DNA of 42,825 bases from Acutalibacteraceae bacterium (GTDB lineage Bacteria > Bacillota > Clostridia > Oscillospirales > Acutalibacteraceae), in the NCBI GenBank assembly GCA_045531045.1, contig JAZSDI010000102.1, positions 1 through 42,825 on the forward strand, written 5' to 3'. The position numbers were made by a program, and so were the translations under genes. Numbering within the stretch: the stretch's first letter is position 1; every line of letters starts with the position of its first letter. The notes beneath the pieces were generated by a model. It saw nothing but the letters and a program-made list of their open reading frames with translations, did not search any database and had not been told where the DNA came from. Positions 21,070 to 41,878 of the stretch are shown here, piece after piece.

Positions 21070-21070
21070 T

Positions 21071-22219: not shown

Positions 22220-22222
22220 TTT

Positions 22223-23153
22223 TTACCTCAATATAATTTCGAGAGTATCTTTGACATAACTGTCAGGGCGAAGATGATTCAAATAATATTCACGGTTCTT
22301 TTGCATCATATCAGAAAGCAAATCACCGTTTGTAAATAGGCGGTTCACCTTTTCAATACAAGAATTTATACTGTCATAAGTGTAAAAATTCCTGTTCTCA
22401 ATAAGATTTGCAGGTACCAAGTAAAAAGGTTGTTCGGAACTACACCGCCGATAAAATGGCTGCCAAATTCTTTTTTAAGTGCTCTTACAAGTCCGGACCT
22501 GAGCTCACTGATTTTAGAGTATTCTTCTCTTTTTTTCTCAATTCTCTCTTCAACCGAAAAACCGTCTAAATCGGTGTTTTGGCTACTGTAAGATGAAGCA
22601 ATTGATGGGTCCCAAAGTTTGGTGTAAAAGAAAACCTTGGGGTCTTTAATTGTTGAGGGAGCCATTTCAAAGGCATCAGTATATATGTTTTTAAATAAAT
22701 TTTTAAAAAAGAGCAGTTTTCGGGCAAGTTTTTTAGCTTCTGAAATATCTCTGTTTAATATAATGCTTTTAAAATTTACCGCATTTAAAGGAGAGTCTTT
22801 GCAAGTAACATGGTATCTTGGGGCAAGGACAAATATTTTATCCTTATTTCGCATATCGCTATGAAAAGATTCACGCAAAGATGCCCTAAATAAAAATCAA
22901 CATTATCAAGCATATCGTCAATTGCTTTAAAGGAGGGGTAATTATTATATCCGTCGATCAAATCGTAAATTACCCCTTTGCCATCTACTAAAACCTCAAT
23001 TATTGCACTATGAAAAAACTCTTTTTTGAGGTCGGGTTTTTCTGCTAAAGTGAATGTGAGGTGGTTTTCTTTTGCGAGAAGTGTAAAACCTGCTATTATT
23101 TGGTCAACATACATTGAATTGCGGTCTGCAACTGCAATGGAACAATTGAGCAT
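22223..23153 (-). pseudogene. Uncharacterised glycan-locus gene (~310 codons) interrupted by two frameshifts
   Basis: Three consecutive overlapping same-strand ORFs (22785-23153, 22366-22878, 22223-22420) read as one protein if one base is added or removed near 22892-22896 and near 22423-22427. Both sites are A5/T5 runs. The gene is packed 3 nt from both neighbours. Confidence 0.6.
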
Positions 23154-23156
23154 ATT

Positions 23157-25213: not shown

Positions 25214-25232
25214 TAGAACTGCGTCCTTATTT

Positions 25233-26297: not shown

Positions 26298-27381
26298 AAA
26301 TAAACCCCTGTACAGATTTGGTTTTGATTATATAAGAGGAAAGCTTGTTAAATAAAACCGCAACAACAATCGTGATTGTTAATACAGATATGGTAAATAA
26401 TTCTTCGGATATTTTAGGCAATCCCAAATCTAACAAGCACTCTATTATAAGTCCGTGGAAAAGATATATTTCCAAAGAAATTTTACCAAGGAAACTTGTT
26501 ATACGGTTTATAACATTAAATTTATACATTAAAATGCATAAAAATATTGGAATAAAGAAGCCCATAAGAACACTGTTTATAAACCAAACATCAAAGGTGA
26601 ATTTTCCTCTTGCAAAAGAAAAGGGTAAATTTATTATACGGTTAAAGATTGCAGGGAATAAATACGCACCTAGACTAAAGATAAATGCAATTCCCGTAAA
26701 TAACCAGTAATTATTTTTTAAGGTCATTTCAATGCTATCTTTTTTATACGCAAAACAAATTCCAACAACAAACATTTCGCATGTGAGTATCCACCACTCG
26801 GGCCAACCGAAAATCACGCAACAAAATATATAAATTGCTATTCCTATGCAAATTTTCAAAACAGTTTTTTTGGTATTAAACCCTTTTTTGCGGAAAACAA
26901 GCCAGAAAATAACCGAAAAGACCAAAATTGCAACCATATACCAAGAGTTGCTTATAAGGTCACCTTTAACGGTTCTTGTCAAAATTTCTTTAAATGGAAC
27001 GTCAAAGAAGACACAGCGAACAAATATGTAAATCAAAATTAAAATTAAGTAAGGTATACCCAAGTTTACAAATCGCTTCTTTAAAAAACCGTTCATATAG
27101 TTTGGCTTGTTTTTTAAGCTTACAACCAAAGAATATCCGCTGAATATAAAAAACAGTCCGACTCCCACACTTGCCATAATAGACATTGATACAAAAGGAA
27201 GTTCTCTTTCAACCCTTGCGGTCAAATGACACAAAACGATTGAAATCGCAAGTATTCCTCTTACAGCGTTAGTATTCTTTAAAGAAAAGGCCTCTTGCGA
27301 AATGTCATTAGAAAAAACATCAGTATTCTTTCTAATTGAAAAAAGAAGAAAAACTAAAAACACAGCAGTTACGATAATCAT
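26281..27381 (-). CDS. Acyltransferase-3 family membrane O-acyltransferase
   Basis: 366 aa. NAVRGILAISIVLCHL motif; polytopic. Confidence 0.8.
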   Translation of the reverse strand: MIIVTAVFLVFLLFSIRKNTDVFSNDISQEAFSLKNTNAVRGILAISIVLCHLTARVERELPFVSMSIMASVGVGLFFIFSGYSLVVSLKNKPNYMNGFLKKRFVNLGIPYLILILIYIFVRCVFFDVPFKEILTRTVKGDLISNSWYMVAILVFSVIFWLVFRKKGFNTKKTVLKICIGIAIYIFCCVIFGWPEWWILTCEMFVVGICFAYKKDSIEMTLKNNYWLFTGIAFIFSLGAYLFPAIFNRIINLPFSFARGKFTFDVWFINSVLMGFFIPIFLCILMYKFNVINRITSFLGKISLEIYLFHGLIIECLLDLGLPKISEELFTISVLTITIVVAVLFNKLSSYIIKTKSVQGFIYGNVY

Positions 27382-28580
27382 ATTTTGTGTTTCTCCAACT
27401 CAAATATTTTTTGCGCTTCAAAAGCGTTGTCGTAATTGACAGTTTTTGTGTTTTCAATAAGCGTGTTTCTAAAATCGGGATTGTTAATCATATACTCAAT
27501 TCCCTCTACAACACCATCAATACCCATTTCGCAAATGTAACCGTCAAAACCCTCTTTTAATTGTGCCGAACTTGTGGTATATCGGGTTATCATAACGGGT
27601 TTATTTAAAATCTGAGCTTCGGTAACGGTTACCGCTTTGCCCTCATAGCGTGAAGGTTGAGCGTATATATCGCACTCTTTCATATAAGGGTAAGGGTTGT
27701 CCTTTTTGCCAAGAACAATTACAGTATCCTGCAATGAATACTTTTCAATAAGACTCTTAATCAGTTGCTCATCTTGACCGTAGCCGATAAGATACCACTT
27801 GAAGTCATAACCTTTTTGCTTTAGTTTATCACAAGCGATTACAACATCATCAAAGGCTTTTGCCGTGCAAAATCTGCCGACCGAAAGGATTTTTACATCA
27901 GTATTGTCTGGCATGTCGTCCTTTACTGCAAATTCCTCGGCTCTTGTCTTTACAAAATCGCTTGAAAATATGTTTTCAATAACAACGGTTTTTTCTTGCA
28001 GAGAGGGATAAATTTTGTCAAACGAAAGTTTAACCTGTTCGCTGACACAAGCAACATAATCAAGTCCCGCCCACATAGGTAATGTGAATTTTACATCTGG
28101 TAGTTCAGTAGAACTGCTGTAATCGGTGTGTACCCAGCCGATTTTAAGATCGGCATCTACATTGTTGCAAAGAAAATAATGGGGTCCCAAGAATCCGAGT
28201 GCAACATCATAATGCTTAGGTATTTTTTTTACTATACGGGAAACTATTTTTTTGCAAAGGGTAATGTTTATTGTATCGGTCTTTTTGATTTTTGCTCTTA
28301 AATCACCATAAAATTTGGAGAACAAGCGAATTGCCGCCATATAAAACTTGCCTTTTTTAATCAATTGTAAAATAGGCCAACTAACATAAGAAAACATTTT
28401 ATTTTCAGGCAACAAATTTACCTTTTCATTTATCAAAGGCATAAACTCACCCGTATGGGACAAAAGAAACAAATCAACCTCATATTTATCATAATCTATG
28501 GCGTCAAGCAGACCTAAAAGGCTTCGCTCTACACCGCCGATTTCCATTCCGGGACCTATTATCAAAACTTTTTTCTTCAT
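27378..28580 (-). CDS. GT-B fold glycosyltransferase (family 4/group 1)
   Basis: MKKKVLIIGPGMEIGGVERSL N-terminus and a C-terminal E-x7-E-like region (PSRYEGKAVTVTEAQ). Confidence 0.85.
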   Translation of the reverse strand: MKKKVLIIGPGMEIGGVERSLLGLLDAIDYDKYEVDLFLLSHTGEFMPLINEKVNLLPENKMFSYVSWPILQLIKKGKFYMAAIRLFSKFYGDLRAKIKKTDTINITLCKKIVSRIVKKIPKHYDVALGFLGPHYFLCNNVDADLKIGWVHTDYSSSTELPDVKFTLPMWAGLDYVACVSEQVKLSFDKIYPSLQEKTVVIENIFSSDFVKTRAEEFAVKDDMPDNTDVKILSVGRFCTAKAFDDVVIACDKLKQKGYDFKWYLIGYGQDEQLIKSLIEKYSLQDTVIVLGKKDNPYPYMKECDIYAQPSRYEGKAVTVTEAQILNKPVMITRYTTSSAQLKEGFDGYICEMGIDGVVEGIEYMINNPDFRNTLIENTKTVNYDNAFEAQKIFELEKHKI

Positions 28581-28619
28581 AAAATCAATTCCATTTTTAT
28601 TATAAGGTAGTGTAGTTAA

Positions 28620-29726
28620 CTATAAAGATAAATAGAAATTCTCTAAATATTTTGCAGTGCTTTCTATATCATAGTCCATATCTTTTACTTTTTTAGCATA
28701 TTGCTCTCTGTTAACATAATCTTTGTTTTCAAAATTTTTTAGTGCCTCAAGCCAAGAAATAAATGTATCAAGAGGATAATAATTTATTAAATCTGTCAAA
28801 TCGGTCTCTCTCGGTATCATATCAGAAGCTAAAACGGGCAGTCCGCTTGCTTGAGCTTCAATAGCCACGATTCCGAGTCCTTCAAATAAAGACGGGAAGA
28901 GAAAAACATCCATTGCCGACAGAAAATCAGGAACATTATTGTGAGAGCCTAAGAATAAAACTTTATCCTCTAAGCCCTTTGCTTTTACATACTCTTTGTG
29001 TTTTTTCATATCCTCGCCGGCGCCCAAAAAGATTAAAACTGCATTAGGGTTGCATTTTGAGTATTCCTCAAAAAGTTTTATTGAAAAAATTTGGTTTTTT
29101 TCATAAGAAAATCTGCCAATGTTACCTATAACAAATTTGCCCTCTAAACCGTATTCTTTTCTGATTTTATCCCTAGCGGATTTTGAAAACATAAATCTAT
29201 TTGTGTTTATAGCATTGTTGATGATTTTACATTTGTTTCTGTTTTTTGGGGTTTTAAATAAATACTTGGCAGCGGCTTTTGAACAGGCAAAACAATGGGT
29301 TACGCAGAATGGGATTTTAAGTCGTATTAATCTTTTATAGATGTCAATTTTCCAGTTGTCTTCTTTGGCGTTTCCTACATGAGAGTGTGCGATTCTAACT
29401 GGTATGCCCGCTTTCTTCGCCATTGATAGGGCATTTCCGTTTTCACAGTTTATGTGGGAATGAATTATTTTATATTCAGGATGATCCTTAAAAAACTCAT
29501 AAAGGCCCTTCAGGTACCCCAAATATCCCACCTTGGAGGCATAAGGGATGGCATACATTTTGCCACCAAGCTCTTCGATTTCCTTTGAAAAGAAATTATC
29601 GCAAGAATTATGACATAAAAAATCAAACTGAATCTTTTCACGGTCTATATTGCGGTAAATAGACATAAGCAAAGTTTCAACTCCGCCGTAATCCATAGAG
29701 GTAACAAAATGTAAAATTCGTTTCAT
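28620..29726 (-). CDS. GT-B fold glycosyltransferase (family 4/group 1, EpsF-like)
   Basis: ILHFVTSMDYGGVETLL N-terminus and FPSLFEGLGIVAIEAQASGLPV. Confidence 0.88.
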   Translation of the reverse strand: MKRILHFVTSMDYGGVETLLMSIYRNIDREKIQFDFLCHNSCDNFFSKEIEELGGKMYAIPYASKVGYLGYLKGLYEFFKDHPEYKIIHSHINCENGNALSMAKKAGIPVRIAHSHVGNAKEDNWKIDIYKRLIRLKIPFCVTHCFACSKAAAKYLFKTPKNRNKCKIINNAINTNRFMFSKSARDKIRKEYGLEGKFVIGNIGRFSYEKNQIFSIKLFEEYSKCNPNAVLIFLGAGEDMKKHKEYVKAKGLEDKVLFLGSHNNVPDFLSAMDVFLFPSLFEGLGIVAIEAQASGLPVLASDMIPRETDLTDLINYYPLDTFISWLEALKNFENKDYVNREQYAKKVKDMDYDIESTAKYLENFYLSL

Positions 29727-29743
29727 AGATATGTTCCTTAAAT

Positions 29744-30706
29744 CTAATTGTGTATTTTTCTATATAAATCCAAATTATGATTGGGCTTAGGCAATTCTAA
29801 ATCTTTGCCGAAAATAAAGTCATATTCGTCAGGCTCATATACGATAAATCCGCTACTATCGAAAAATGTAATTTCACCAAAGTAAATTTTTCCGTTACAT
29901 TCATAAAAATCAACCCTAGCGTGAGGGAAAGGCTTGCTGATTTCTCTTGCGAGTTTTGTCATTTCTCTATGTATTTCTTTAATTTCAAAGCTTTTAAGCT
30001 GTTGCATATCAGGTGCATCATACATGGGGAAAATATTGCCGTCAATATCTGCGTAAAGACGTTTGTGATTGGTCATTCTAAGCTCGTCCACCTCTAAAAC
30101 TTGCGGTTCGCCGTTAAAACAGAAAAATTTAAAGTCTCTAAGTTCACCCGAGTCATCTTCGAGGTATTTTTCAATGATTATTCTGGGTTTTTGGCCCGCA
30201 TAATTCCATTCTCTGCCAAACCAAGCTAAATTTTGTTTAAGCCAACTTTTCATTATCCTTTTTTGGCGTTTCCAGTCAACTGTTGATTTGTCTTTGACAA
30301 TCAAATTCCAGCCTGAACCGTGTGATGCTTTTAAAACAAATCTTTCAGGTAAAGCGTCGACATCTATATCATCTACATTCTCATAAACGGCGATAAGCTC
30401 GTTTAAAAGTTCGCCGTACCCCAAATTATTCAAGTATTCGCGAACAGCATATTTATCCGATGCCGCAGTCATATTATCATCGCGGTAAAAGAGTTTTAAC
30501 CATTGCAATTTTTCGGTAAATCTTTGTGGATTTTTTAAGTCGATTTCTCTTTTACATTCTTTTTTGTATTGCCTACAAATGAAAGAATAGTCGGATTGAA
30601 ATTTATAAGTTAAGCCCCATTTAAAGCGCTTGTACTCATCCCAAAAATATGCAAAGGTTAAGTTTTTTTTCTTAAATTTACGCAAAGTATTCTTAAATGA
30701 CTTCAT
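29744..30706 (-). CDS. TupA-like ATP-grasp amide ligase (paralogue 1)
   Basis: TEKLQWLKLFYRDDNMTAASDKYAVREYL, FVLKASHGSGWN, RDFKFFCFNGEP, and RVDFYECNGKIYFGEITFF. ATG 30706 lies 8 nt behind GGAG; the ORF-track GTG at 30712 is less likely. Confidence 0.8.
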   Translation of the reverse strand: MKSFKNTLRKFKKKNLTFAYFWDEYKRFKWGLTYKFQSDYSFICRQYKKECKREIDLKNPQRFTEKLQWLKLFYRDDNMTAASDKYAVREYLNNLGYGELLNELIAVYENVDDIDVDALPERFVLKASHGSGWNLIVKDKSTVDWKRQKRIMKSWLKQNLAWFGREWNYAGQKPRIIIEKYLEDDSGELRDFKFFCFNGEPQVLEVDELRMTNHKRLYADIDGNIFPMYDAPDMQQLKSFEIKEIHREMTKLAREISKPFPHARVDFYECNGKIYFGEITFFDSSGFIVYEPDEYDFIFGKDLELPKPNHNLDLYRKIHN

Positions 30707-30721
30707 AAACACATCTCCTTC

Positions 30722-31801
30722 TTATCTGTTCCAAATAAATCTGAAATTATAAAGTGCATCGCTGTTCGATATTTCATACCGCCAATAGAAAAAGAAAAAT
30801 ATTAAAATACCCGCTTTGACAAAAATCTCGAAATTCTTATTTTTAAATACAACTAATTTTCCTAATGCAAGAGGTAATAGAACCGACAAATAAATATTGA
30901 TTCTTGAAATATAGGGACTGTTCATACCGATAATGGCGAATAGACCATATAAAATAAGCCAATTCAAATAAAAAGTTTGTTCGGGTGTTTTTTCTGATTT
31001 TGTGTATACAAAAAAACAAAATATTGCAGGCATCATAGAAATTAAAACTCTTAAAATATTAACCTGTCTTAAATAATATGATCCTTCTTCTATAACGATT
31101 TCTGATTCTTTTAAACCGCCAATGAAGGAGAAAATAAATTCATAATTATATAAAAGAATAATTGAACCTATGGTCAGAAGCAGTATATTGCTTAAATTAA
31201 TCTTTTTGCGTAACATAAAATAAGGCACTATCATAATTATTGCAGACTTATGAAAGAGAAAGGCAATAAAGACGCATAAGATATATTTTAATAATTTTTT
31301 ATCAAAAACAAATCTGTGACCAAGACATATTATCGCTGCAGCAAAAAACTGGCGCACACCATTAAAAGAACCATGCCAAACACCTGTAAACATAAATAAA
31401 AGGGCTGATAAAAGGTATGTATCGGTATATTTAAATGTTATAGCAAGTATGCTGACCACTGTGAATGCAGAGGTTATAAATATAAATACCGCACCGTCAG
31501 TTGTAAAAAGTGTGATTATTGCTGCAAGTATTGGAAATCCAGGTTCATCTAATTCTTTAAGCGTTGATAACCAATTAGGAGCATAGTTATCAGCAAATCT
31601 GTAATATGCACCAAAGTCGGCACCTACAAAATATCTAAATCCGGAAATAGAGACCAAAATTAGTGTTATTGTTAAAAGAAATAACTTTGTGACATGGTTG
31701 TTTTTTATCAATTGGCCTGTTTCGGTTGCAACATAATTTGAATATAACGCTAATGCCGAAAAAATAAACACCGATAGCGCGGTTAAATAATATACTACCA
31801 T
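30722..31801 (-). CDS. wzy: EpsG-family polysaccharide polymerase (Wzy-like)
   Basis: 359 aa with ~10-11 helices. EpsG-like N-terminal region (SGFRYFVGADFGAYY). Confidence 0.75.
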   Translation of the reverse strand: MVVYYLTALSVFIFSALALYSNYVATETGQLIKNNHVTKLFLLTITLILVSISGFRYFVGADFGAYYRFADNYAPNWLSTLKELDEPGFPILAAIITLFTTDGAVFIFITSAFTVVSILAITFKYTDTYLLSALLFMFTGVWHGSFNGVRQFFAAAIICLGHRFVFDKKLLKYILCVFIAFLFHKSAIIMIVPYFMLRKKINLSNILLLTIGSIILLYNYEFIFSFIGGLKESEIVIEEGSYYLRQVNILRVLISMMPAIFCFFVYTKSEKTPEQTFYLNWLILYGLFAIIGMNSPYISRINIYLSVLLPLALGKLVVFKNKNFEIFVKAGILIFFFFYWRYEISNSDALYNFRFIWNR

Positions 31802-31819
31802 TAATAATCTCCAAATAAA

Positions 31820-32647
31820 TTATCGTTCTTCATTTTCTTTGAGATATTTATGTTTTTGCCAGTTTCTGTAAACTTCCACAAGCTTAAAAGGAACTATTGA
31901 CTTTACAATCATCTCAACCGCCGGACGAATTAACCAAACCTTAGGATACTTAAGGAGTTTAAATCCTATCAAGGTTGTTTTAAAAGCATTGTATCTAACC
32001 TTAAAAGTTCTGCGACGAATGGCATTTTCATCCTCTCTCACGAGATAGAGCGCTTCCCTCATATTGGTTCCTTTAAAACCATTAGCATAAAATCTAAACC
32101 ACAAATCATAATCCTGAGCGCGCATAGTTCTTTTGCTGACAGTATATCCGTTTACAGTGTCATACATTTTCTTTTCGGTTAAAATCGTTGCGTGGTGGAA
32201 AGGTATTTTTGTGCGTAAGGTATAATAGTCGGGATTATCCACCGCATAAACTATATCCGCCAAGCCTTTTTGATTAAATCGTTGCATAGCGGTACCCACA
32301 AGCTGATATTCGGGGTTTTCTTTTAAAAATGCCATTTGTTTTTCAAGTCGCTCGGGAAGACTGATATCATCAGCGTCCATTCGGGCAATATAATCCCCTG
32401 TGGCATATTTAAGACAGTGGTTAAGCGAAAAAGAAAGTCTTGAATTAACTTCATTTCTTATCAAAACAATTCGGTTATCCTTTTTAGCATATTCTTTTAA
32501 AAGTTTAAAGCTGTTATCTGTTGAAGCATCATCACAAATAATAAATTCAATGTTTTTATATGTTTGATTTAAAATTGAATCTACGGCTTCTTTGAGGGTT
32601 GCTTCAGCATTGTAAACTGCCATAATAACGGATATTTTATCACTCAT
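31820..32647 (-). CDS. Family 2 glycosyltransferase
   Basis: ISVIMAVYNAEATLKEAVDSILNQTY, CDDASTDNS, and RMDADD. Confidence 0.9.
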   Translation of the reverse strand: MSDKISVIMAVYNAEATLKEAVDSILNQTYKNIEFIICDDASTDNSFKLLKEYAKKDNRIVLIRNEVNSRLSFSLNHCLKYATGDYIARMDADDISLPERLEKQMAFLKENPEYQLVGTAMQRFNQKGLADIVYAVDNPDYYTLRTKIPFHHATILTEKKMYDTVNGYTVSKRTMRAQDYDLWFRFYANGFKGTNMREALYLVREDENAIRRRTFKVRYNAFKTTLIGFKLLKYPKVWLIRPAVEMIVKSIVPFKLVEVYRNWQKHKYLKENEER

Positions 32648-32675
32648 TTATACATCCACCATGTTTCATATAATC

Positions 32676-33929
32676 TTATTTTAAAATTGTTTTGACGCTT
32701 TCTTTCAAAATGTTTAAGCCTTCCATAAGTTTTTCCTTTTCAATGGTTAAAGGAGGAAGGATTTTAACAACCGAGTCGTGACGTCCTGCACGCTCGATGA
32801 TTAGATTGTTTTTAACACATTCAAACATAACCTTTTTGGATATATCTTCACCGATTTCGGCAAAATCAATTCCCCATATCATACCAATACCTCTATAGGA
32901 AAGCTTATTATTTAAAGGTAGTATGTTTTCTTTAATAAAGTTTTCGATGATTTCACTGTTTTGTTTAACTACTGCATTTAAATCATTGGCACAGTAATAT
33001 TCAACAGCTGCTTTTGCACCAACAAAAGCCAATTGGTTTCCTCTGAAGGTGCCGTTATGTTCGGCGGGTCTGAAAACATCGATTTCGGGTCTCATAAGCA
33101 ACATAGACATTGGTAATCCGAATCCACTGAGAGATTTTGAAAGCACAACAATATCAGGAACAACGCCTGCTCTTTCAAAAGAGAAGAATGTTCCTGTTCT
33201 GCCTATGCCCACCTGTATATCATCGCACACAAGCAAGATTTCATATTTATCGCAGATTTCACGCAATTTTTTAAGCCAAGATATATCGCAGACATTAACT
33301 CCGCCTTCTGCCTGTACTGTTTCAAGGAAGATGGCGGCGGGTTTGTCGATGCCCGAATGGTCGTCGCTCAAAACCCATTCAAGATATTCGATAGATTTAT
33401 TGTAATCACCAAATTGATTGGAATAAGGCATAAATGTAACGTTATTAAGGCTAACTCCGCCGCCCGCACGGGAGAAAGAGTCGCTTGTCATGCTAAGGCT
33501 TCCGAGAGACATGCCGTGGAATGCGCCCGAAAAAGCAAAAACATTGCTTCTGCCGGTATATTTTCTTGCAAGTTTTAGAGCGGCTTCAACAGCGTTTGTG
33601 CCGGTCGAACCGCAAAACATCATTTTGTAATCTAAATTTCTGGGTTTTAAAATTAAATTGTAAAAGGTATCAATAAAACCTTCTTTGGCGGTTGTATACA
33701 TATCCAAAGCGTGAATAATAGTATCTTCGGATAAATATTCTAAAATAGCATTTTTAATGTAGGGATTGTTATGGCCATAATTAATTGCGCCTGCACCAGC
33801 AAAAAAGTCTATATATTTTTCGCCACTTTCTGAAATGAGTTGAGCATTTTTTGCGTATTTCAATTTAATTGGGAAATTTCTGCAGTATGACCTTACGTTA
33901 GATTCGTGTTTTTCAAATGTTTTGTACAT
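32676..33929 (-). CDS. Class-III PLP aminotransferase of the diaminobutyrate--2-oxoglutarate transaminase (EctB/Dat) type
   Basis: HESNVRSYCRNFPIKL and YIDFFAGAGAINYGHNNP match the EctB/Dat N-terminal signature. DDIQVGIGRTG and the lysine context VVLSKSLSGFG are present. ATG 33929 lies 9 nt behind GGAG; the 27 upstream codons of the ORF track overlap the preceding gene and are unlikely to be translated. Confidence 0.8.
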   Translation of the reverse strand: MYKTFEKHESNVRSYCRNFPIKLKYAKNAQLISESGEKYIDFFAGAGAINYGHNNPYIKNAILEYLSEDTIIHALDMYTTAKEGFIDTFYNLILKPRNLDYKMMFCGSTGTNAVEAALKLARKYTGRSNVFAFSGAFHGMSLGSLSMTSDSFSRAGGGVSLNNVTFMPYSNQFGDYNKSIEYLEWVLSDDHSGIDKPAAIFLETVQAEGGVNVCDISWLKKLREICDKYEILLVCDDIQVGIGRTGTFFSFERAGVVPDIVVLSKSLSGFGLPMSMLLMRPEIDVFRPAEHNGTFRGNQLAFVGAKAAVEYYCANDLNAVVKQNSEIIENFIKENILPLNNKLSYRGIGMIWGIDFAEIGEDISKKVMFECVKNNLIIERAGRHDSVVKILPPLTIEKEKLMEGLNILKESVKTILK

Positions 33930-33942
33930 TTTAATAACTCCT

Positions 33943-34818
33943 TTATAATTTAATCCAACTTCCGAATTTTTGCTCGTATTCGGGCGGAAACTCATAAAAT
34001 CCGCCGTCATGGAAAAAGGTTAATTCAGAAAAATATATTTTGCCATCAATGTCATAAAGATCAACTCGTATAAAAGGAAATCCCTCCGAAAGTTTTCGGC
34101 AAATATCAACCATTTTATCGAAATTCGCCGACTTTTCAACGGGAGTATCGGATTTTGGACAAATGTGTTCAAAATCATATGGATTAAAATCGATATCAAA
34201 ATAATCAAATCGTTGGTCAGTGTGCTGATTTGTAATGACCTGAATCACCTTTGGTTCACCGCCAAAACATAAAAACTTGTAGGTTTTGAGTTCATCCCCC
34301 GAAAGAGTGCTCATATATTTTTCGGCAATAATATGCGGAACAACCGTTTTATACGGAAACTCTCTAGCTGCATTAAAAGGATTGATTCTGAGTCTTCCTT
34401 CAAAAAACTTTTTGAGTTCGCCCTTATCGATTTTGCTTTTGTCGGTAATGATTTTAACACTTCCCGAATCATGAGAACATTTTAAAACAAACTTTTCGGG
34501 GAGTTTTTCAAAATCTATATCATCGAAATTTTTCCATACACCTAATAGTGGGATAGATAAATCTTCGCCTGTCTTTTCTTTTACATAATCGCGAACTGCA
34601 ATTTTATCTACATAGCGGGCATAGGAATCATCTTTTGCATAAAGTTTTATCCAGTTTAACTTTTCGTTAAAACCTGTTGGATTTTTAAAATTAAGTTTAT
34701 TACCGGTCTTAATCCAATAAACCATTTTCAAATAGGGCTTATCGGGGATAAAGGACAACTTATCAATGAGTTGTAAACGAGCTTCTCTATTTTTAAAGAT
34801 TTTTTTATAATCCCACAT
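33943..34818 (-). CDS. TupA-like ATP-grasp amide ligase (paralogue 2)
   Basis: NEKLNWIKLYAKDDSYARYVDKIAVRDYV, FVLKCSHDSGS, KTYKFLCFGGEP, and RVDLYDIDGKIYFSELTFF. TAATG overlap with the epimerase stop. Confidence 0.8.
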   Translation of the reverse strand: MWDYKKIFKNREARLQLIDKLSFIPDKPYLKMVYWIKTGNKLNFKNPTGFNEKLNWIKLYAKDDSYARYVDKIAVRDYVKEKTGEDLSIPLLGVWKNFDDIDFEKLPEKFVLKCSHDSGSVKIITDKSKIDKGELKKFFEGRLRINPFNAAREFPYKTVVPHIIAEKYMSTLSGDELKTYKFLCFGGEPKVIQVITNQHTDQRFDYFDIDFNPYDFEHICPKSDTPVEKSANFDKMVDICRKLSEGFPFIRVDLYDIDGKIYFSELTFFHDGGFYEFPPEYEQKFGSWIKL

Positions 34819-35804
34819 TATAAATTCTCCTTATACCACTTTATTGCAAGTTTAATGCCGTCGGCGAAACTGTAATCGGGGTCGTAACCAAGTAAGCGTT
34901 TTGCTTTAGAAATATCAGCATTTGAGTGTTTGATATCACCCTTACGGTCGGGACCGAAGTTCGGCTCAATATCAACCTTTAAAGCCTCGGTTAAGCCGTA
35001 ATAAATATCAATCAAATATTCTCTGCCGCCAAAAGCAATGTTGAAAGCCTCGCCTGCCGCCTCGCTGGGCGCTAAACAAGCCTTTAAGTTTGCTTCAATA
35101 ACATTATCAATATAGGTAAAGTCTCGGCTTTGCTTACCATCGCCGTTAATGGTGGGTTGTTCGCCCTTTAAGAGCAACTTGATAAATTTCGGGATAACTG
35201 CGGCATAAGCACCGTCAGGTGTCTGTCTTCTTCCGAAAACATTGAAGTAACGCATACCGTAGGTATCAAGACCGTAGTGCATGGTATAAAGCTTTGCCCA
35301 CTCCTCATCGCAACGCTTGGTTAAAGCGTAAGGAGAAAGCAAGTTGCCCTCAACACCCTCGGTTTTGGGGAGTTTTGGCTCATCGCCGTAAACAGAAGAG
35401 GAGGAGGCGTAAACAAACTTCTTAACACCCTGCTGGCGTGCAGCCTCTAACATATTAAGAGTGCCTTCAATATTGTTTTTGCAGTAGAAAATCGGCATTT
35501 CAAGACTTCTTGGAACACTGCCCCAAGCGGCTTGGTTAAGAACAAAGTCAACACCCTCGCAAGCCTTCATACAGGTATCCAAATCCTTGATATCGCCCTT
35601 TACAAACTCGTAGTTAGGGTTGTCTAAAAACATATCAACATTTTCCTGTTTGCCTGTTGAAAGGTCATCAAGGCAACGCACCTTGTAACCTAAATTCAAA
35701 ATTGCTTCACAAAGGTTGGAGCCGATAAAACCTGCTCCGCCTGTTACTAAAAAGAGTGAATTTTTGGGGAATTTTAAATGTTTATAACTCATAATTAACC
35801 TCAT
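34818..35804 (-). CDS. SDR-family UDP-N-acetylhexosamine(uronate) 4-epimerase, WbpP/TviC-like
   Basis: VTGGAGFIGSNL, AAWGSVPRS, SPYALTK (YxxxK), YFNVFGRRQTPDGAYAAVIPKF, and INGDGKQSRDFTYIDNVIEANL align closely along the length with remembered WbpP/TviC sequences. An alternative ATG at 35792 sits behind GAGG. Confidence 0.85.
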   Translation of the reverse strand: MRLIMSYKHLKFPKNSLFLVTGGAGFIGSNLCEAILNLGYKVRCLDDLSTGKQENVDMFLDNPNYEFVKGDIKDLDTCMKACEGVDFVLNQAAWGSVPRSLEMPIFYCKNNIEGTLNMLEAARQQGVKKFVYASSSSVYGDEPKLPKTEGVEGNLLSPYALTKRCDEEWAKLYTMHYGLDTYGMRYFNVFGRRQTPDGAYAAVIPKFIKLLLKGEQPTINGDGKQSRDFTYIDNVIEANLKACLAPSEAAGEAFNIAFGGREYLIDIYYGLTEALKVDIEPNFGPDRKGDIKHSNADISKAKRLLGYDPDYSFADGIKLAIKWYKENL

Positions 35805-36568
35805 TTAACCTTTCGGAATATTCGATTATATATATATTGAAAAAAAGTAGGGTGAGTATACAGTTGCGACGGCAAACTGGATGTCACGGTTTTCAAATTA
35901 TTGTTTATAACATCATTAATCGCTTTAATTTCACATTTAACGCCCACCCCCGTTTGAATCAACGGATAGGTGACAAAATTATCGGATTTTGTAATCGCTA
36001 TATTTTCTTGATATAAAATATTTCCTGTATCTATACCTTCATCAACCAAATGAACCGTAACACCCATGTTTTCCTGATCATTATTATACAAAGCCCAATA
36101 AGCACCATGGCAACCCCTGTATTTTGGAGTGATTCCTGCGTGCATATTTATAAAAACTGAATCAATAGAATTTAAAACTTCTGAGCTTATAATACGAGTT
36201 CCGTTAACAATAACTATCTGCGGAGAAATTTCTTGTAATGCTTTTATGCATTCCTTTGAGTTTACAGAATCAACGAACATTGTACTATCTTTCTCCAAAT
36301 AATGAGGAGCGATATCAATATCATACTGTTCTATAATTTCCCACACTCTTTTTTTAGAGGTCTTTTTCAAAAAAGGAACTATAACTGCTGAAAAGGCCAT
36401 CTGTCCTAAAACTTTAAATAATCCTAGTTTTTTTATTCTCCGTTTTAAGAAAACGGATTTTTTAACGCCTTCTTCGATTATTACTTTCTCAATATTATAA
36501 TGTTTGCACAATTCGTTATACACAACCGCACTTGAAGTACCTCGACTACAAAGCATAACTATTTTCAT
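35801..36568 (-). CDS. Formyltransferase-domain protein (candidate sugar N-formyltransferase)
   Basis: 255 aa. Formyl_trans_N catalytic pattern: FINMHAGITPKYRG (N-x-H, RG) and VHLVDEGIDTGNIL (Asp). Confidence 0.7.
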   Translation of the reverse strand: MKIVMLCSRGTSSAVVYNELCKHYNIEKVIIEEGVKKSVFLKRRIKKLGLFKVLGQMAFSAVIVPFLKKTSKKRVWEIIEQYDIDIAPHYLEKDSTMFVDSVNSKECIKALQEISPQIVIVNGTRIISSEVLNSIDSVFINMHAGITPKYRGCHGAYWALYNNDQENMGVTVHLVDEGIDTGNILYQENIAITKSDNFVTYPLIQTGVGVKCEIKAINDVINNNLKTVTSSLPSQLYTHPTFFQYIYNRIFRKVK

Positions 36569-37530
36569 GTGTATATCTCCTCCGCCAATTCTTTCATATT
36601 TCTACTTTCAAAGCCATATCGTTTATTTAATTTTACATAAAATTTAAAAATTTCTTCAAGTTGCTGTAGGTTTTTCTCGGTGTTTAGACCTATATTATGG
36701 GGATGCCACCAAAAATGAAAAACCTTTCCACGCTTAGCAGCATGCTTCATTTGTTGTTTTATGCACGATAGTTTTAAGCACTCTAAAATCCTCAAACGGT
36801 TATCATATTGACGGAAAAATCTACTTGCAGGTATATTAAATATTCCATCTTCATAACAATTTTCTATTTTATAACATTTTAATCCGCAAATATTTATATA
36901 AGAGTCTATTAAACGAATTGCTCTTGCCGCTAAAGTAGAGTTATTATACGCATAATGTTTGTAATTTCCACGTATGGTTTTAAACCCACATTTTTTTGCA
37001 ACTTTTATGTATTCATTTAAAAATTGATTTCGTGGAAATATTAAGCTTTTTAAGGCGATATTTTTTTTGTCTTTTGCAATTTTTTGTGCACTTTCCAAAT
37101 CACTTTGGAAGGTTTCAACATTTTGACCTTCTTCTTTGCAATAATAATGAGAATATGTGTGCGAACCAACCTCTTGATTTTTCGAATTTAGTATTTTATC
37201 TATCAAGCTAGATGCAAAGTGGAAACAATCTTCGTTTTCGTTTTCCCCAACAAACTTCAAATGATTTTCCGCCGAAAGCTTAACATTTGAATAATTCGGT
37301 TTTATTTTCGGAAAATATTCTCTCATTTCAGTAGCATTTTCAGCAAAAAGAAGCCCAACAACACCCCATGTTGCATGAATATCATATCTTTGAAATAAAT
37401 CCAATAATTGAGGTATAGCATCCCTTGCGCCTATTATTCGTTTTGAAAAAGTATCCCGAGTTGCATGATCAAATACGCCCCAAAGCAATTCAAAATCTAA
37501 AGAAATAACAAAGCGACCTTTTTTGTTCAT
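36565..37530 (-). CDS. CE4 (NodB-type) polysaccharide deacetylase family protein
   Basis: ISLDFE (motif 1), GSHTYSHY (H-x4-H, motif 2), and IFPRNQ (motif 3). ATG 37530 lies 8 nt behind GGAGAC; the ORF-track extension to 37602 overlaps the upstream gene. Confidence 0.75.
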   Translation of the reverse strand: MNKKGRFVISLDFELLWGVFDHATRDTFSKRIIGARDAIPQLLDLFQRYDIHATWGVVGLLFAENATEMREYFPKIKPNYSNVKLSAENHLKFVGENENEDCFHFASSLIDKILNSKNQEVGSHTYSHYYCKEEGQNVETFQSDLESAQKIAKDKKNIALKSLIFPRNQFLNEYIKVAKKCGFKTIRGNYKHYAYNNSTLAARAIRLIDSYINICGLKCYKIENCYEDGIFNIPASRFFRQYDNRLRILECLKLSCIKQQMKHAAKRGKVFHFWWHPHNIGLNTEKNLQQLEEIFKFYVKLNKRYGFESRNMKELAEEIYT

Positions 37531-37531
37531 T

Positions 37532-38854
37532 TTACAGTCTCCAATAAATGTATCCCGCATTTTCATACTGTGTGCGGTCAAGAAGTCCCTTAATGTCGGC
37601 AAGAACTTTCTTGGAATTGTCTCCTGCCTTAAACATTTTGTCGAAATCAGCCTCGGTAAAGTTTTTAAACTCTTCGTGGGCTACGGCTAAAATTACAGCG
37701 TCACAGTCCTTAATGTCAGAAATGTCAACAAATTCCATACCGTAAAGGTGTTTTGCCTCTGCCTTGTCAGCGGTGGGGTCAGCAACTGCAGCGGTAATGC
37801 CGTATTCTTTAAGTTCGTTATAAATATCAATAATCTTTGTGTTTCTGGTGTCGGGGCAGTTTTCTTTAAAGGTGAAGCCCAAAATCGCAACCTTAGCGGT
37901 TTTAATAGCAACATCGGCTTTAATAAGGTTTTTAACAATGCTTTCGGCAACATATTTACCCATATCATCATTAATTCTTCTACCCGAAAGGATAACCTGA
38001 CTGTGATAACCCAACTGCTCTGCCTTGTATGTAAGGTAATAAGGGTCAACACCGATACAGTGACCGCCAACAAGACCGGGGTAGAACTTAAGGAAGTTCC
38101 ACTTTGTACCTGCAGCCTCTAAAACAGATTTTGTATCAATTCCCATTTTATTGAAAATAATGGAAAGTTCGTTCATAAAGGCAATGTTAATGTCTCTTTG
38201 GCTGTTTTCAATAACCTTTGCAGCCTCGGCAACCTTAATGCAGGATGCTCTGTGAACGCCTGCGTCAACAACAATTTCGTAAACCTTTGCGACCTCGTCA
38301 AGAGTCTCGGCGTCCATACCTGAAACAATTTTAACAATGGTTTCAAGGCGGTGCACCTTGTCGCCTGGGTTGATACGCTCAGGAGAATAGCCAACCTTAA
38401 AGTCAACGCCGCACTTAAGACCAGACTCTTTTTCCATAATGGGAACGCAAACATCCTCGGTAACACCGGGGTAAACGGTGGACTCGAAAACAACGATAGC
38501 GCCCTTTGTCAAGTTTCTGCCGACAATGCGACTTGCGCCCTCAACGGGGGTTAAGTCGGGGGTGTGGTCGTCGTTAACTGGGGTTGGAACAGCTACAATG
38601 TGGAATTTTGCATCTCTAAGACGGGTTTCGTCAGCAGTGAATTCAACAGTTGTGTTCTTTATAGCCTCGTCGCCAACCTCGTTAGTGGGGTCAATACCCG
38701 ATTTGTAGGTGTTGATTTTAGCTTCGTTAAGGTCATAACCTATAACCTTAACGCCGCGTTTTGCAAACTCAATAGCGATAGGCATTCCAACATAACCTAA
38801 ACCTACCAAAGAAATTTTTTCTTCACCGTTTATAATTTTTTCATACAAAGACAT
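37532..38854 (-). CDS. UDP-N-acetylhexosamine 6-dehydrogenase, TviB/WbpO-like nucleotide-sugar dehydrogenase
   Basis: VGLGYVGMPIA Rossmann motif, YSPERINPGDKVHRL, KVAEAAKVIENSQRDINIA, catalytic Cys in GLVGGHCIGVDPYYLT, and GFTFKENCPDTRNT. Confidence 0.88.
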   Translation of the reverse strand: MSLYEKIINGEEKISLVGLGYVGMPIAIEFAKRGVKVIGYDLNEAKINTYKSGIDPTNEVGDEAIKNTTVEFTADETRLRDAKFHIVAVPTPVNDDHTPDLTPVEGASRIVGRNLTKGAIVVFESTVYPGVTEDVCVPIMEKESGLKCGVDFKVGYSPERINPGDKVHRLETIVKIVSGMDAETLDEVAKVYEIVVDAGVHRASCIKVAEAAKVIENSQRDINIAFMNELSIIFNKMGIDTKSVLEAAGTKWNFLKFYPGLVGGHCIGVDPYYLTYKAEQLGYHSQVILSGRRINDDMGKYVAESIVKNLIKADVAIKTAKVAILGFTFKENCPDTRNTKIIDIYNELKEYGITAAVADPTADKAEAKHLYGMEFVDISDIKDCDAVILAVAHEEFKNFTEADFDKMFKAGDNSKKVLADIKGLLDRTQYENAGYIYWRL

Positions 38855-39965
38855 TGTTTTTTTCTCCTTTGTTTACAGTTTTATTAATATTTTCCAAATA
38901 CATATCAATTACAATTTGTCTGTCAAACTCTTTTTCAATTTTTGCACGGGCATTTTCACCCATGATTTTTCGCTCGTTTTCTGACAATGATATGAATTTT
39001 TCTATACAATTAAAAAGCTTTTCGGCGTTTTTAACGGGGAAGGTGTATCCACTTTCGTTTTCGTCAATTATTTCCTTACAACCCGAAATATCTGATGCAA
39101 TACACGCTCTTCCCGCCGAGGACGCTTCCATTAAAACGTTTGCCATTCCTTCGTGGTATGAGGGGTGTAGTATGCAGTGGCACTCGGAAATCAGGTCGTG
39201 CACCTGTGTTTGGGTTTTCTCACCGTGATATATAACGGGATATTCCTCACAAAGGTCGGCAATTTCCTTTTGGTACCTTTCTTCTTCGCACCAACCTACA
39301 ACATTAAATTCTATATTGTCGCGTTTGCCTAATTTTTTAATAGCATAAAACAGTTCGTCAAAACCTTTGTCTTGCCTTAGCCTTGAAACAACTATGAATT
39401 TAATTTTGCCGTTTTCTTCAGGGTAAGGAACAAAGGTGTGTTTTTGGGTGTTAACGCCAGAGCCCGGCAACAAAACCGACGCCTTGCCCGTAATTTTGTT
39501 TTGGTTTAAGAGCTTCATATTTTCCTCGTTTTGGAAAAATATTACCTCACTGCTTTTCATAGCGTATCTCATAAGGAAAAACATCACGCTTTGTTTTAGT
39601 CCTTTAGACTGCATTGTGCTGCCAAGTCCTGTTATGTTGTTTAAAACCGAAACCTTACATTTTCTACAGGCTATTGAGCCGTAGATATTCGGTTTTACAG
39701 TGTAGGTCAAAACTACATCGGGTTTTACGCTTTTGATGAGTGCTTTGTATTCTTTTATAAGTTTAAGTTCTTTTAGAGGATTTGTGCCGTGGCGGGTAAG
39801 ATTATTTTCTATAACGCTGCAACCCAAATCTCTAAAGGCTTGGTTTTTTTCGTCCTTTGGCAAACTTAAAATAACTTCGTATTTTTCCTTGATGAATCTT
39901 TCTAAAAGCTCCATTCGAAAATTAAAGAGAGTTTTAAAATCGTTTGCCAGAATTAAAATTCTCAT
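38841..39965 (-). CDS. GT-B fold glycosyltransferase (family 4)
   Basis: MRILILANDFKTLFNFRMEL N-terminus and HPSYHEGMANVLMEASSAGRACI. 14-nt overlap with the dehydrogenase start. Confidence 0.85.
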   Translation of the reverse strand: MRILILANDFKTLFNFRMELLERFIKEKYEVILSLPKDEKNQAFRDLGCSVIENNLTRHGTNPLKELKLIKEYKALIKSVKPDVVLTYTVKPNIYGSIACRKCKVSVLNNITGLGSTMQSKGLKQSVMFFLMRYAMKSSEVIFFQNEENMKLLNQNKITGKASVLLPGSGVNTQKHTFVPYPEENGKIKFIVVSRLRQDKGFDELFYAIKKLGKRDNIEFNVVGWCEEERYQKEIADLCEEYPVIYHGEKTQTQVHDLISECHCILHPSYHEGMANVLMEASSAGRACIASDISGCKEIIDENESGYTFPVKNAEKLFNCIEKFISLSENERKIMGENARAKIEKEFDRQIVIDMYLENINKTVNKGEKNNVFV

Positions 39966-40880
39966 TTAAATTTTCTCCAAAATTTTATTTGCAATTCCTT
40001 TAGCGTCAATGCCAAATTGGCTTCTCAAATATTTTTGCGAGCCAACCTTTGAAGAATATGTATCCTCAAGACCAATTTTCAAAAGCTTTGCGTTCTGGGG
40101 ATTTTCTGCCATAACCTCGGCAACGGCACTTCCGAATCCGCCTACAACATTGTGCTCTTCAACGGTTGTTATCAAGTCAAACTTTTCAGCAGAGTCCAAA
40201 ATCACCTTGCGGTCAATGGGCTTTACTGTGGGGAAGGTGTAAACCTCGGGGTTGATTCCCTTTTCTTTTAAAAGTTCAACCGCCTCGTCAACTTCCTCAA
40301 AAATTGCGCCAGTTGAGAAAATTGCAACCTTGGCACCGTCTTTAACCTTGATGGCTTTTCCAATTTGGAAATTTTCTATTTTTTCGTGAATGCGCTTTTC
40401 ACCGCCGCGGCCAAGACGAAGATAACAAGTGCCGTTATATTCAGCAATAGCCTTTGTTGCGGCTTCAGCTTCGGTTAAATCACCGGGGGCTAAAACCACC
40501 ATATCGGGGAGTGCGCGCATAATCGCGATATCCTCGGTGGCGTCGTGGCTCATACCAAGAGAGCCGTAAACAAATCCGCCGCCAACACAAACGATTTTTA
40601 CATTTGCATTGTGATAACAACAGTCATTTCTTATCTGCTCAACACAACGAAGTGTTGGGAAGTTGCCGATAGAGTATGTAAATACGCTTTTGCCCTCAAG
40701 CGCCATACCTGCGGCGAGAGCGGTCATATTCTGCTCGGCAATGCCGGCGTTTGTAAACTGATTTGGAACAGCTTCCCAGTAAGGCTTCAAAACGCCAAAA
40801 CCAAGGTCGCCTGTTACAAGCTCAATATTTTTGTTTTCCTTGGCTAATTCAACAAGGGTTCTAACAAATGTATCTCTCAT
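39966..40880 (-). CDS. Transketolase, C-terminal (pyrimidine-binding) subunit
   Basis: MRDTFVRTLVELAKENKNIELVTGDLG, AGIAEQNMT, and FGSAV. ATG 40880 sits behind GGAGGG; the ORF-track start at 40910 is over-extended. The stop abuts the GT4 start with no gap. Confidence 0.88.
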   Translation of the reverse strand: MRDTFVRTLVELAKENKNIELVTGDLGFGVLKPYWEAVPNQFTNAGIAEQNMTALAAGMALEGKSVFTYSIGNFPTLRCVEQIRNDCCYHNANVKIVCVGGGFVYGSLGMSHDATEDIAIMRALPDMVVLAPGDLTEAEAATKAIAEYNGTCYLRLGRGGEKRIHEKIENFQIGKAIKVKDGAKVAIFSTGAIFEEVDEAVELLKEKGINPEVYTFPTVKPIDRKVILDSAEKFDLITTVEEHNVVGGFGSAVAEVMAENPQNAKLLKIGLEDTYSSKVGSQKYLRSQFGIDAKGIANKILEKI

Positions 40881-40881
40881 T

Positions 40882-41862
40882 TTATTTGCCCTCCTTCGCT
40901 TTCTCAACATCGCTCAAGGTGTTTACACGCCTTGGACTCTGTAAAAAGTCGGGTTTCCAGGTTTCGGTCATGGTGTGGTCACTGCCGTCAAGTTCGGTGT
41001 TAAGATTTGGGTTTTCAATTCCGTTAGGTGTATAAACATCCTCAACACCCTCGGGTTTAACCTTGTGTAACTCGGTTACAGCGGTGTCGTACTCCCAACC
41101 TTCGTGGGGGAAGCGGTAGTGCCATAAAATATCCGACTCCATAAAGGAAATGCCTTTACCCTTTGTGGTATTCGCAACAATAACGGTGGGCTTGTCCTTT
41201 TCAGTTTTTGCGCTTTCAAAGGCTTTTTTTAATTCTTCGTGATTATTGCCATCAATCTCAATGGTGTTCCAGCCAAACGCTTTCCATTTTGAAGCAAAGT
41301 TTTCAATTTCAAGGGTGTTTTCGTTATAGTCAAGACTCTGCATACGGTTGTGGTCTACAACGGCGATTAAATTATTCAGTCTGAAATGGTTTGCAAACAA
41401 AGCAGCCTCCCAAACCGAGCCTTCGTTACACTCACCGTCGCCTAAAACAACAAATACACGGTTTTCTTTGCCATCCTTTTTAAGTGCATAAGCCATACCT
41501 GTTCCAACCGAAAGGCCGTGACCCAAAGAGCCGGTTGACAAATCAACACCGGGCAAATGGTGGGAAACGTGACCTGAAAGGCGGCTGCCGTTCTGGTAGT
41601 GGCTCTTTAATTCTTCAACAGGGAAAAAACCGCTTTCTGCCAATGCGGCATAAACGCTCGCACCTGCGTGACCCTTGCTTAGAATAAAGCGGTCCCTATT
41701 GGGTGATTTCGGGTTTTTGGGGTCGATTTTTAAAACATCGGCATAAAGCACTGCCATAATATCGGCAACCGACAAAATCGCGCCAATATGACTTCCGCCT
41801 GAAAGGTGGGTCATTTCAATACCGTGTCTTCTAATTTTCCAAGCAAGTTGTTGACTGTTCAA
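40882..41862 (-). CDS. Transketolase, N-terminal (ThDP/PP-binding) subunit with a ~60-aa C-terminal extension
   Basis: GGSHIGAILSVADIMAVLY, RDRFILSKGHA, and GDGECNEGSVWEA (ThDP-Mg motif). The canonical domain ends near aa 266 of 326. Confidence 0.88.
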   Translation of the reverse strand: MNSQQLAWKIRRHGIEMTHLSGGSHIGAILSVADIMAVLYADVLKIDPKNPKSPNRDRFILSKGHAGASVYAALAESGFFPVEELKSHYQNGSRLSGHVSHHLPGVDLSTGSLGHGLSVGTGMAYALKKDGKENRVFVVLGDGECNEGSVWEAALFANHFRLNNLIAVVDHNRMQSLDYNENTLEIENFASKWKAFGWNTIEIDGNNHEELKKAFESAKTEKDKPTVIVANTTKGKGISFMESDILWHYRFPHEGWEYDTAVTELHKVKPEGVEDVYTPNGIENPNLNTELDGSDHTMTETWKPDFLQSPRRVNTLSDVEKAKEGK

Positions 41863-41878
41863 TTAAAACACCTCATCG

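Follow-up and report, generated by a model that had tools for sequence, protein, structure and literature searches.

Within a 42,825-nucleotide stretch of DNA from an Acutalibacteraceae bacterium (GenBank assembly GCA_045531045.1, contig JAZSDI010000102.1, positions 1 to 42,825 of the forward strand; hereafter the window), a polysaccharide operon carries a gene for an EctB/Dat-type aminotransferase, the type of enzyme that makes L-2,4-diaminobutyrate, directly after a gene for a TupA-like ATP-grasp ligase, which we term Grasp1. The pairing of these two genes recurs in other glycan loci, more often than chance would produce, and such a recurrent pairing of TupA-like ligases with a diaminobutyrate synthase appears to be undescribed. 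Our favoured reading, which rests on analogy with a characterised ligase of Campylobacter jejuni, is that diaminobutyrate may be amide-linked to a hexosaminuronic acid by a TupA-like ligase of the operon; we put its probability at roughly 0.45. As a specific claim for the window this is plausible, and it is weakened by the distribution of ligase alleles described below.

The aminotransferase and its neighbouring ligase

A mechanical listing of open reading frames (ORFs) gave the aminotransferase as 32676..34010 (444 residues), with a start that falls within the ligase gene. The gene instead starts at the ATG at 33929, which has AAAGGAG ahead of it (Table 1). A first-pass annotation of the window had placed the start 13 nucleotides after the stop of the TupA-like gene on the minus strand, and this spacing is exact. 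The sequence of the ligase/aminotransferase junction is identical in L001 and L005, two of the related loci that are referred to here by L numbers. L005 belongs to the nearest genome, a Clostridia metagenome-assembled genome from water-deer caecum, and is 91-95% identical to the window in nucleotides over the operon.

By every test applied to its sequence, the aminotransferase is a genuine EctB/Dat-family enzyme, in agreement with the first-pass annotation. The N-terminal motifs on which that annotation had relied are present, ESNVRSYCRNFP at residue 9 and YIDFFAGAGAINYGHNNP at residue 39. The protein exceeded the cut-offs of three curated NCBIfam models: NF006733 (606 versus 438), the TIGR02407 ectB equivalog (573 versus 552) and TIGR00709 dat (452 versus 402), with a wide margin for NF006733 and a narrow one for TIGR02407. 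Compared with EctB structures, it scored 412 bits against 6RL5, end to end over residues 5-415, and 411 bits against 9S1Q; the best class-III structures from outside the EctB family, those of GABA and acetylornithine transaminases, scored 180 bits or less. Its identity to the Chromohalobacter EctB was approximately 50%, which we took as inside the range of the family because 430 genuine EctBs share 51-91% identity (PMC6915088).

The key residues of EctB are the lysine that binds pyridoxal 5'-phosphate (PLP), K274; M149, which stands in place of the arginine of GABA transaminase; and N301 and T303, contributed by the neighbouring subunit (Richter et al., PMC6915088). Using motifs and a constant offset of 9, we matched K265, M140, N292 and T294 of the window enzyme to K274, M149, N301 and T303 of the P. 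lautus enzyme. All four residues were invariant across 28 relatives. The dN/dS of the gene, calculated between the window and L005 and L001, was 0.04-0.06, indicating strong purifying selection in all three EctB-bearing loci. It is very likely, judging from these features, that the enzyme makes diaminobutyrate from aspartate semialdehyde.

The gene is not part of an ectABC cluster. Its neighbours are the ligase gene and a GT2 glycosyltransferase gene, and ectA and ectC were absent from scans of the 42.8-kb window. More broadly, Pfam scans of nearly all window ORFs of at least 100 residues (7500..8213 and 8823..9410 in the his operon were left out) revealed no ectA-type acetyltransferase, EctC or group-II decarboxylase, bearing out the earlier statement that the window lacks ectA, ectC and a diaminobutyrate decarboxylase. 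The aminotransferase is indeed orphaned from ectoine and polyamine genes, as had been proposed, and lies inside a polysaccharide operon beside genes that form uronic acids.

Grasp1 matched PF14305 at 200 bits (gathering score 25), covering model positions 1-241 of 241. Its AlphaFold2 model had a pLDDT of 94.3 and a pTM of 0.91. The best Foldseek matches of this model were Ddl, RizA, ArgX/LysX and YwfE, with a probability of 1.0 and TM values of only ~0.4, and neither sequence nor profile searches of the Protein Data Bank (PDB) returned a relative of the TupA-like ligase. Based on these empty searches and distant matches, the TupA-like family is structurally uncharacterised; the model identifies Grasp1 as a predicted ATP-grasp amide ligase of this family. 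Because only distant ATP-grasp ligases were matched, their substrate pockets are not transferable to Grasp1. K53, K113, E153, K181, R251, D253 and E265 were invariant in 31-41 homologues and all are kept in Grasp1, where they would serve in binding ATP and Mg.

Table 1. Features of the window, with predicted functions and the evidence for each assignment.
Feature	Coordinates	Strand	Evidence
Glycan operon, at least 22 closely spaced glycan genes	19555..42811	-	Pfam scans
Grasp2, second TupA-like ATP-grasp ligase, 322 aa, after EpsG polymerase gene	29744..30712	-	PF14305, E 2.9e-50, 171 bits
EctB/Dat-type L-2,4-diaminobutyrate:2-oxoglutarate transaminase (predicted), 417 aa	32676..33929	-	Pfam Aminotran_3, E 2.9e-70
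13-nt spacer with ribosome-binding site AAAGGAG, ligase stop to aminotransferase start	33930..33942	-	Read directly
Grasp1, TupA-like ATP-grasp amide ligase (allele class A), 291 aa	33943..34818	-	PF14305 ATPgrasp_TupA, E 4.2e-59
TviC-like UDP-HexNAcA 4-epimerase	34818..35804	-	Pfam Epimerase, E 1.3e-61
Formyltransferase	35801..36568	-	Pfam Formyl_trans_N
Polysaccharide deacetylase	36565..37602	-	Pfam Polysacc_deac_1
TviB-like UDP-N-acetylhexosamine 6-dehydrogenase (uronic acid source)	37532..38854	-	Three UDPG_MGDP_dh domains

Recurrence of the gene pair

Relatives of the aminotransferase were sampled using look-ups of the contigs that encode them and an alignment-based scan of metagenomes. 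The latter was far more productive than a scan of genome contigs with exact peptide patterns of the aminotransferase, which gave six close relatives. A TupA-like gene lay directly upstream on the same strand in 15 loci, with gaps of -24 to +24 nucleotides, and nearby in three more. The co-occurrence envisaged in the first-pass annotation is thus found in at least 14 independent glycan loci with the same tight spacing. Once near-duplicates were removed, a TupA-like ligase adjoined the aminotransferase in 13 of the 21 loci whose enzyme was at least 60% identical to that of the window, versus 3 of the 47 below 60%.

Among the loci that bear the pair, the ligases were only 36-63% identical to one another and the aminotransferases 61-71%. 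Hosts include Pelotomaculum, Lachnospiraceae and unclassified Clostridia. Eight further TupA-EctB loci, scanned gene by gene, were all glycan loci, with GT1, GT2 and GT4 glycosyltransferases, flippase, EpsG and acyltransferase genes. The ligase alleles counted as members of the cassette were those of L002, L003, L044, L047, L051, L052, L055, L058/59, L060, L065 and L120. In seven TupA-EctB loci, including L002 (11304-12437), L003 (11263-12366), L006, L047, L052 and L089, a PGA_cap gene (CapA-like, PF09587) directly follows the aminotransferase gene to give a three-gene cassette; the window is without it.

Other EctB relatives, 49-67% identical to the window enzyme, occur in different company. 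In 11 loci, whose homologues are 53-60% identical, they stand beside nonribosomal peptide synthetase (NRPS) genes, one of which was confirmed to encode three C-A-T modules and a TE domain. In three loci (L048, L066 and L069) their neighbours fall in one sequence cluster, a putative Mur-ligase-type family. The L048 member was confirmed: the 505-residue neighbour of the EctB-like gene (8249-9763) has Mur_ligase_M and Mur_ligase_C domains, which hints at diaminobutyrate in the peptidoglycan of some gut Firmicutes. One relative adjoins an Orn/Lys/Arg-type decarboxylase. Since the relatives adjoin NRPS, a Mur-type ligase, a decarboxylase or a TupA-like ligase, the simplest reading is that the EctB-type family acts as a movable source of free diaminobutyrate, stationed next to the enzyme that uses it in each case. 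Finally, a 65%-identical EctB-like protein of L045/L046 (7001-8266 and flanks) is a very common gut protein, found in 156 blocks of the contig collection. Its glycan locus holds an ATPgrasp_ST ligase, a FemAB-family protein, a PIG-L deacetylase and an LpxD-like acyltransferase, an arrangement that is a possible further route for diaminobutyrate into a surface polymer.

Proposed pathway and alternatives

The precedent for the chemistry is Cj1438C, a TupA-like domain that amidates the C6 carboxylate of glucuronic acid (GlcA) with ATP and with amines that PLP enzymes supply (PMC11800379); the first-pass annotation had described this Campylobacter HS:2 system correctly. Amidation by Cj1438C precedes addition of the next sugar, while GlcA is still the non-reducing end (PMC11800379). 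In the window, the TviB/TviC-like genes that had been reported near the pair were found directly upstream of it (Table 1). The TviB-like protein scored 465 bits with the TviB model (cut-off 592) and passed the nucleotide-sugar dehydrogenase subfamily model (392 versus 190). The best NCBIfam match of the TviC-like protein was TviC, at 298 bits versus an equivalog cut-off of 760. Because both score under the equivalog cut-offs, the names are qualified as "like". The stop of the TviC-like gene overlaps the start of Grasp1 by 1 nucleotide, and the TviB-like, EctB-like and Grasp1 genes all lie within 6.2 kb of one operon. The adjacency of TviC and TupA is kept in L005 and in L127-L133, and the TviB-TviC-TupA triad is conserved in about nine loci.

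Between its TviB-like and TviC-like genes, the window carries an insertion (35797..37538) that contributes the deacetylase and formyltransferase genes and that neither the 95%-identical L005 nor L128-L133 share. The two enzymes probably alter the N-acyl group of the uronic sugar, and their presence suggests a strain-specific N-formyl hexosaminuronic acid.

In the pathway that we propose, the aminotransferase would convert aspartate semialdehyde and glutamate to free L-2,4-diaminobutyrate, as EctB and Dat do, for the glycan pathway and not for ectoine or polyamines. The TviB-like and TviC-like enzymes would yield UDP-GlcNAcA and UDP-GalNAcA, and the inserted deacetylase and formyltransferase may re-acylate the sugar to an N-formyl form in this strain. 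The uronic acid would be moved onto a growing or lipid-linked repeat unit before amidation, as in Campylobacter. A TupA-like ligase, most likely Grasp1 as the translationally coupled upstream neighbour, would then use ATP to phosphorylate the C6 carboxylate of the N-acyl-hexosaminuronic acid. Attack of a diaminobutyrate amino group on the resulting acyl phosphate would give a uronamide with a free amino-acid or amino/carboxyl pair, turning an anionic sugar into a zwitterionic one. The enzyme families, the operon and the recurrence of the gene pair are established from sequence; the amine, the acceptor, the timing and the amino group that is linked are inferred from the precedent of Cj1438C, and the choice of ligase is likewise a prediction.

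Several observations weigh against this pathway as it applies to the window, most of them concerning the ligase. The Grasp1 ORF of the window, allele A, has been exchanged as a whole in comparison with L005 and L001, the flanks being 88-95% identical in nucleotides on both sides. Identity is 45-65% over ~34790-33980 and is back to 97-100% from the last 30 nucleotides of Grasp1 onward. The three near-identical EctB-bearing loci therefore hold three different Grasp1 alleles, which are 56-61% identical in amino acids and saturated in dS; for the flanking genes, dS was 0.1-0.6. The five closest ligases sampled, those of L127-L131, share 92, 84, 82, 80 and 79% amino acid identity with allele A and lie in syntenic loci (TviB-TviC-TupA-GT2-EpsG-TupA...), none of which encodes an EctB at the glycan locus, where its absence was judged (assemblies including GCA_054275455.1, GCA_965322795.1, GCA_965320865.1 and GCA_965337735.1). 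Allele A is also extremely constrained, being 92% identical to the L127 ligase at a dS of ~2.5. Because the corresponding dN/dS is 0.019, its substrates are probably the same in the presence and absence of EctB. L132 (5001-8203) and L133 carry a ligase of this TviC-linked clade with 57% identity, and there two ATPgrasp_ST genes take the place of EctB after the ligase. No UDP-sugar dehydrogenase is visible in several of the TupA-EctB loci, for which as much as 21 kb was available. Lastly, neither a diaminobutyrate-containing polysaccharide nor an association of diaminobutyrate with an ATP-grasp ligase was found in the literature, of which coverage was incomplete. The first-pass claim that this particular ligase and aminotransferase work together is consequently not supported as stated, given that the five loci nearest to allele A are without EctB.

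The same comparisons speak to the acceptor. Allele B, that of L005, likewise belongs to the large TviC-linked clade, which is associated with EctB only sporadically. The constant partner of this clade is TviB/TviC, and EctB is a lineage-specific insertion; the constancy of TviB/TviC supports uronic acid as the acceptor. Pointing the other way, in favour of the pair, are the strong purifying selection on EctB and the nesting of allele A among the EctB-adjacent ligases in a rough neighbour-joining tree. Allele A also keeps eight of the nine positions that separate these from second-copy ligases; this last signal is weak, being confounded by phylogeny.

Three side observations concern these alleles. 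The exchange of three Grasp1 alleles resembles a serotype-type cassette exchange of an amide ligase. In L132 and L133, the triad and the two ATPgrasp_ST genes might assemble a short peptide on the uronic acid. Finally, adaptation of the Grasp1 allele to an N-formyl acceptor, in step with the deacetylase/formyltransferase insertion, was ruled out, as allele-A ligases occur in L127-L131 without the insertion.

The operon encodes a second TupA-like ligase, Grasp2, which the first-pass annotation did not mention and which is 39% identical to Grasp1. Its counterparts in related loci are hypervariable (30-62% amino acid identity), which implies a second, variable amide decoration for which there is no dedicated amine-synthesis gene. 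Grasp2 is 96% identical in L005, whereas its identity to every other second-copy ligase compared, those of EctB-less loci among them, is at most 54%; the allele is thus found only in two loci that both bear EctB. It is an alternative candidate user of diaminobutyrate. Because the closest relatives of allele A sit in EctB-less syntenic loci, either ligase of the window may be the one that uses diaminobutyrate.

The alternative that survives best is that the two adjoining genes are decoupled: Grasp1 would draw on a housekeeping amine, for instance a common amino acid, and diaminobutyrate would go to Grasp2, to another decoration, to the cell wall or to a secondary metabolite. We consider this unlikely, if worth serious attention. 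It would account for the EctB-less loci around all five nearest relatives of Grasp1, for the very strong constraint on allele A across species and for the mostly EctB-free TviC-linked clade, and it is in keeping with the restricted distribution of the Grasp2 allele and with the NRPS, Mur-ligase and decarboxylase contexts that EctB relatives serve elsewhere. It fits poorly with the placement of EctB exactly after the ligase stop, with a spacer and ribosome-binding site like those of independent cassettes, and with the maintenance of EctB within the operon under purifying selection. In addition, ligases of the Grasp2 type are found in EctB-less loci too, and they do not group with the EctB-adjacent ligases.

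It is improbable that the polarity of the reaction is reversed, such that the ATP-grasp enzyme would activate the carboxylate of diaminobutyrate and N-acylate the amine of an amino sugar, for instance one exposed by the deacetylase, to give an N-(diaminobutyryl) amino sugar. The closest structural matches of Grasp1, Ddl and L-amino-acid ligases, do activate amino-acid carboxylates, the window does encode a polysaccharide deacetylase, and several TupA-EctB loci have no visible uronic-acid dehydrogenase yet contain amino-sugar genes (DegT and FdtA in L044). Against this, the only characterised TupA-like enzyme activates a sugar carboxylate (PMC11800379), the TviB-TviC-TupA triad is conserved, and L005 has the pair but no deacetylase. 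The deacetylase of the window is moreover paired with a formyltransferase, so the freed amine is already accounted for.

It is most improbable that the aminotransferase makes a different amine from another aldehyde or ketone, such as a product of the transketolase and aldo-keto reductase (AKR) of the operon: the small ectB equivalog margin, the unexplained presence of these two enzymes and the versatility of class-III enzymes are outweighed by an EctB match that spans the protein and has over twice the strength of that to any other class-III family, by the retained EctB-specific active-site residues, by the TupA-EctB cassettes of L002, L003 and L044, which have no transketolase or AKR, and by L128, L129 and L131, which have both but no aminotransferase. 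Since either set occurs without the other in these loci, the idea that transketolase and AKR feed the aminotransferase was ruled out.

The wider operon and relation to known systems

The genes of the operon run in the order AKR, split transketolase (N and C subunits), GT4, TviB-like, deacetylase, formyltransferase, TviC-like, Grasp1 and EctB-like; these are followed by GT2, an EpsG-type polymerase, Grasp2, two GT4 and two Acyl_transf_3 genes, and then by a pyruvyl transferase, GT2, two ORFs that have no assignment, an FrhB-like gene and a flippase. Where measured (AKR to orf122), intergenic gaps ranged from overlaps to 39 nucleotides, based on which we treat 19555..42811 as one long glycan operon; the gap between the FrhB-like and flippase genes is 1 nucleotide. 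The window ends inside or just past the head of the operon; L005, L128 and L129 show a phosphoglycosyl transferase upstream. The AKR and split transketolase genes (39966..42811, minus strand) head the operon in the window and directly follow the phosphoglycosyl transferase gene in several related loci (L005, L128, L129 and L131).

With its pyruvyl transferase and two Acyl_transf_3 enzymes, the operon probably specifies a glycan that is pyruvylated as well as O-acylated. The FrhB-like iron-sulfur protein is encoded ~1.9 kb downstream of the polysaccharide pyruvyl transferase (21071..25213, minus strand), with GT2 and the two unassigned ORFs in between. These two ORFs, of 170 and 122 residues, overlap within 22366..23153 (minus strand), have no Pfam match and may represent a frameshifted or novel gene. 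Outside the glycan operon, a single ORF of 512 residues at the head of the his operon (11723..13261, minus strand) combines HisRS-like (HisZ-type) and HisG ATP-phosphoribosyltransferase domains.

The C. jejuni HS:2 glucuronamide module comprises the dehydrogenase Cj1441, the PLP enzymes Cj1436 and Cj1437, the C-terminal TupA-like amidoligase of Cj1438 and the phosphatase Cj1435 (PMC11800379). The window, known here from its genes, likewise joins a uronic-acid dehydrogenase, a dedicated PLP enzyme and a PF14305 ligase in one glycan locus. It differs in its proposed amine, the amino acid diaminobutyrate derived from aspartate semialdehyde, where HS:2 uses a phosphorylated amino alcohol. The proposed scheme would need no phosphatase step, and no HAD phosphatase was found in Pfam scans of the window. 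The proposed acceptor is an N-acyl-hexosaminuronic acid and not GlcA. The ligase is a stand-alone protein, whereas that of HS:2 is fused to a GT2, and the host is a Gram-positive member of the Clostridia with a Wzy/flippase-type locus. We also take the class-III EctB-type enzyme of the window to belong to a PLP family other than that of Cj1436 and Cj1437.

In comparison with EctB of ectoine synthesis and Dat of 1,3-diaminopropane and siderophore synthesis, the window enzyme is of the same family and has the same predicted reaction. In contrast to those systems, no ectA, ectC, ask_ect or decarboxylase gene is nearby, the gene is co-oriented within a glycan operon, and its closest relatives (60-71% identity) mostly adjoin TupA-like ligases. 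The arrangement more closely recalls the supply of diaminobutyrate to NRPS of the polymyxin type, in which a stand-alone EctB homologue also stands beside the consumer of diaminobutyrate, although there an NRPS adenylation domain takes up the diaminobutyrate and a peptide, not a glycan, results.

Members of PF14305 are found in loci for cell-surface polysaccharides, where their predicted role is the addition of amino acids as decorations (PMC13419641). Grasp1 shares this family with TupA of the Bacillus halodurans teichuronopeptide and WemR of the Proteus mirabilis O-antigen. For these two the presumed substrates are proteinogenic amino acids, and neither has a dedicated partner for amine synthesis; the window ligase differs in having an EctB-like partner.

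Beyond the window, we consider it possible, and advance it tentatively, that a mobile cassette of TupA-like ligase and EctB, often with PGA_cap, places L-2,4-diaminobutyrate on acidic capsular or cell-wall sugars in gut and rumen Firmicutes. It would define an undescribed zwitterionic class, in which serotype would be switched by the ligase allele and by whether the synthase is present. The locus offers natural experiments that make specificity directly testable: some relatives have the synthase and others lack it, the ligase occurs as three alleles in otherwise near-identical operons, and the deacetylase/formyltransferase insertion is specific to this strain. If the proposal is true, diaminobutyrate would be added to the amide decorations of bacterial uronic acids, among which are serinol, ethanolamine and proteinogenic amino acids. 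EctB-type enzymes would then have a part in surface glycans in addition to the pathways to ectoine, polyamines, siderophores and lipopeptides. Gut commensals make zwitterionic polysaccharides, such as polysaccharide A (PSA) of Bacteroides fragilis, that are known for unusual T-cell-dependent immunomodulatory activity. For this reason, a route to zwitterionic charge patterns that is widespread in Clostridia would matter to host-microbe biology, and also to variation in phage receptors.

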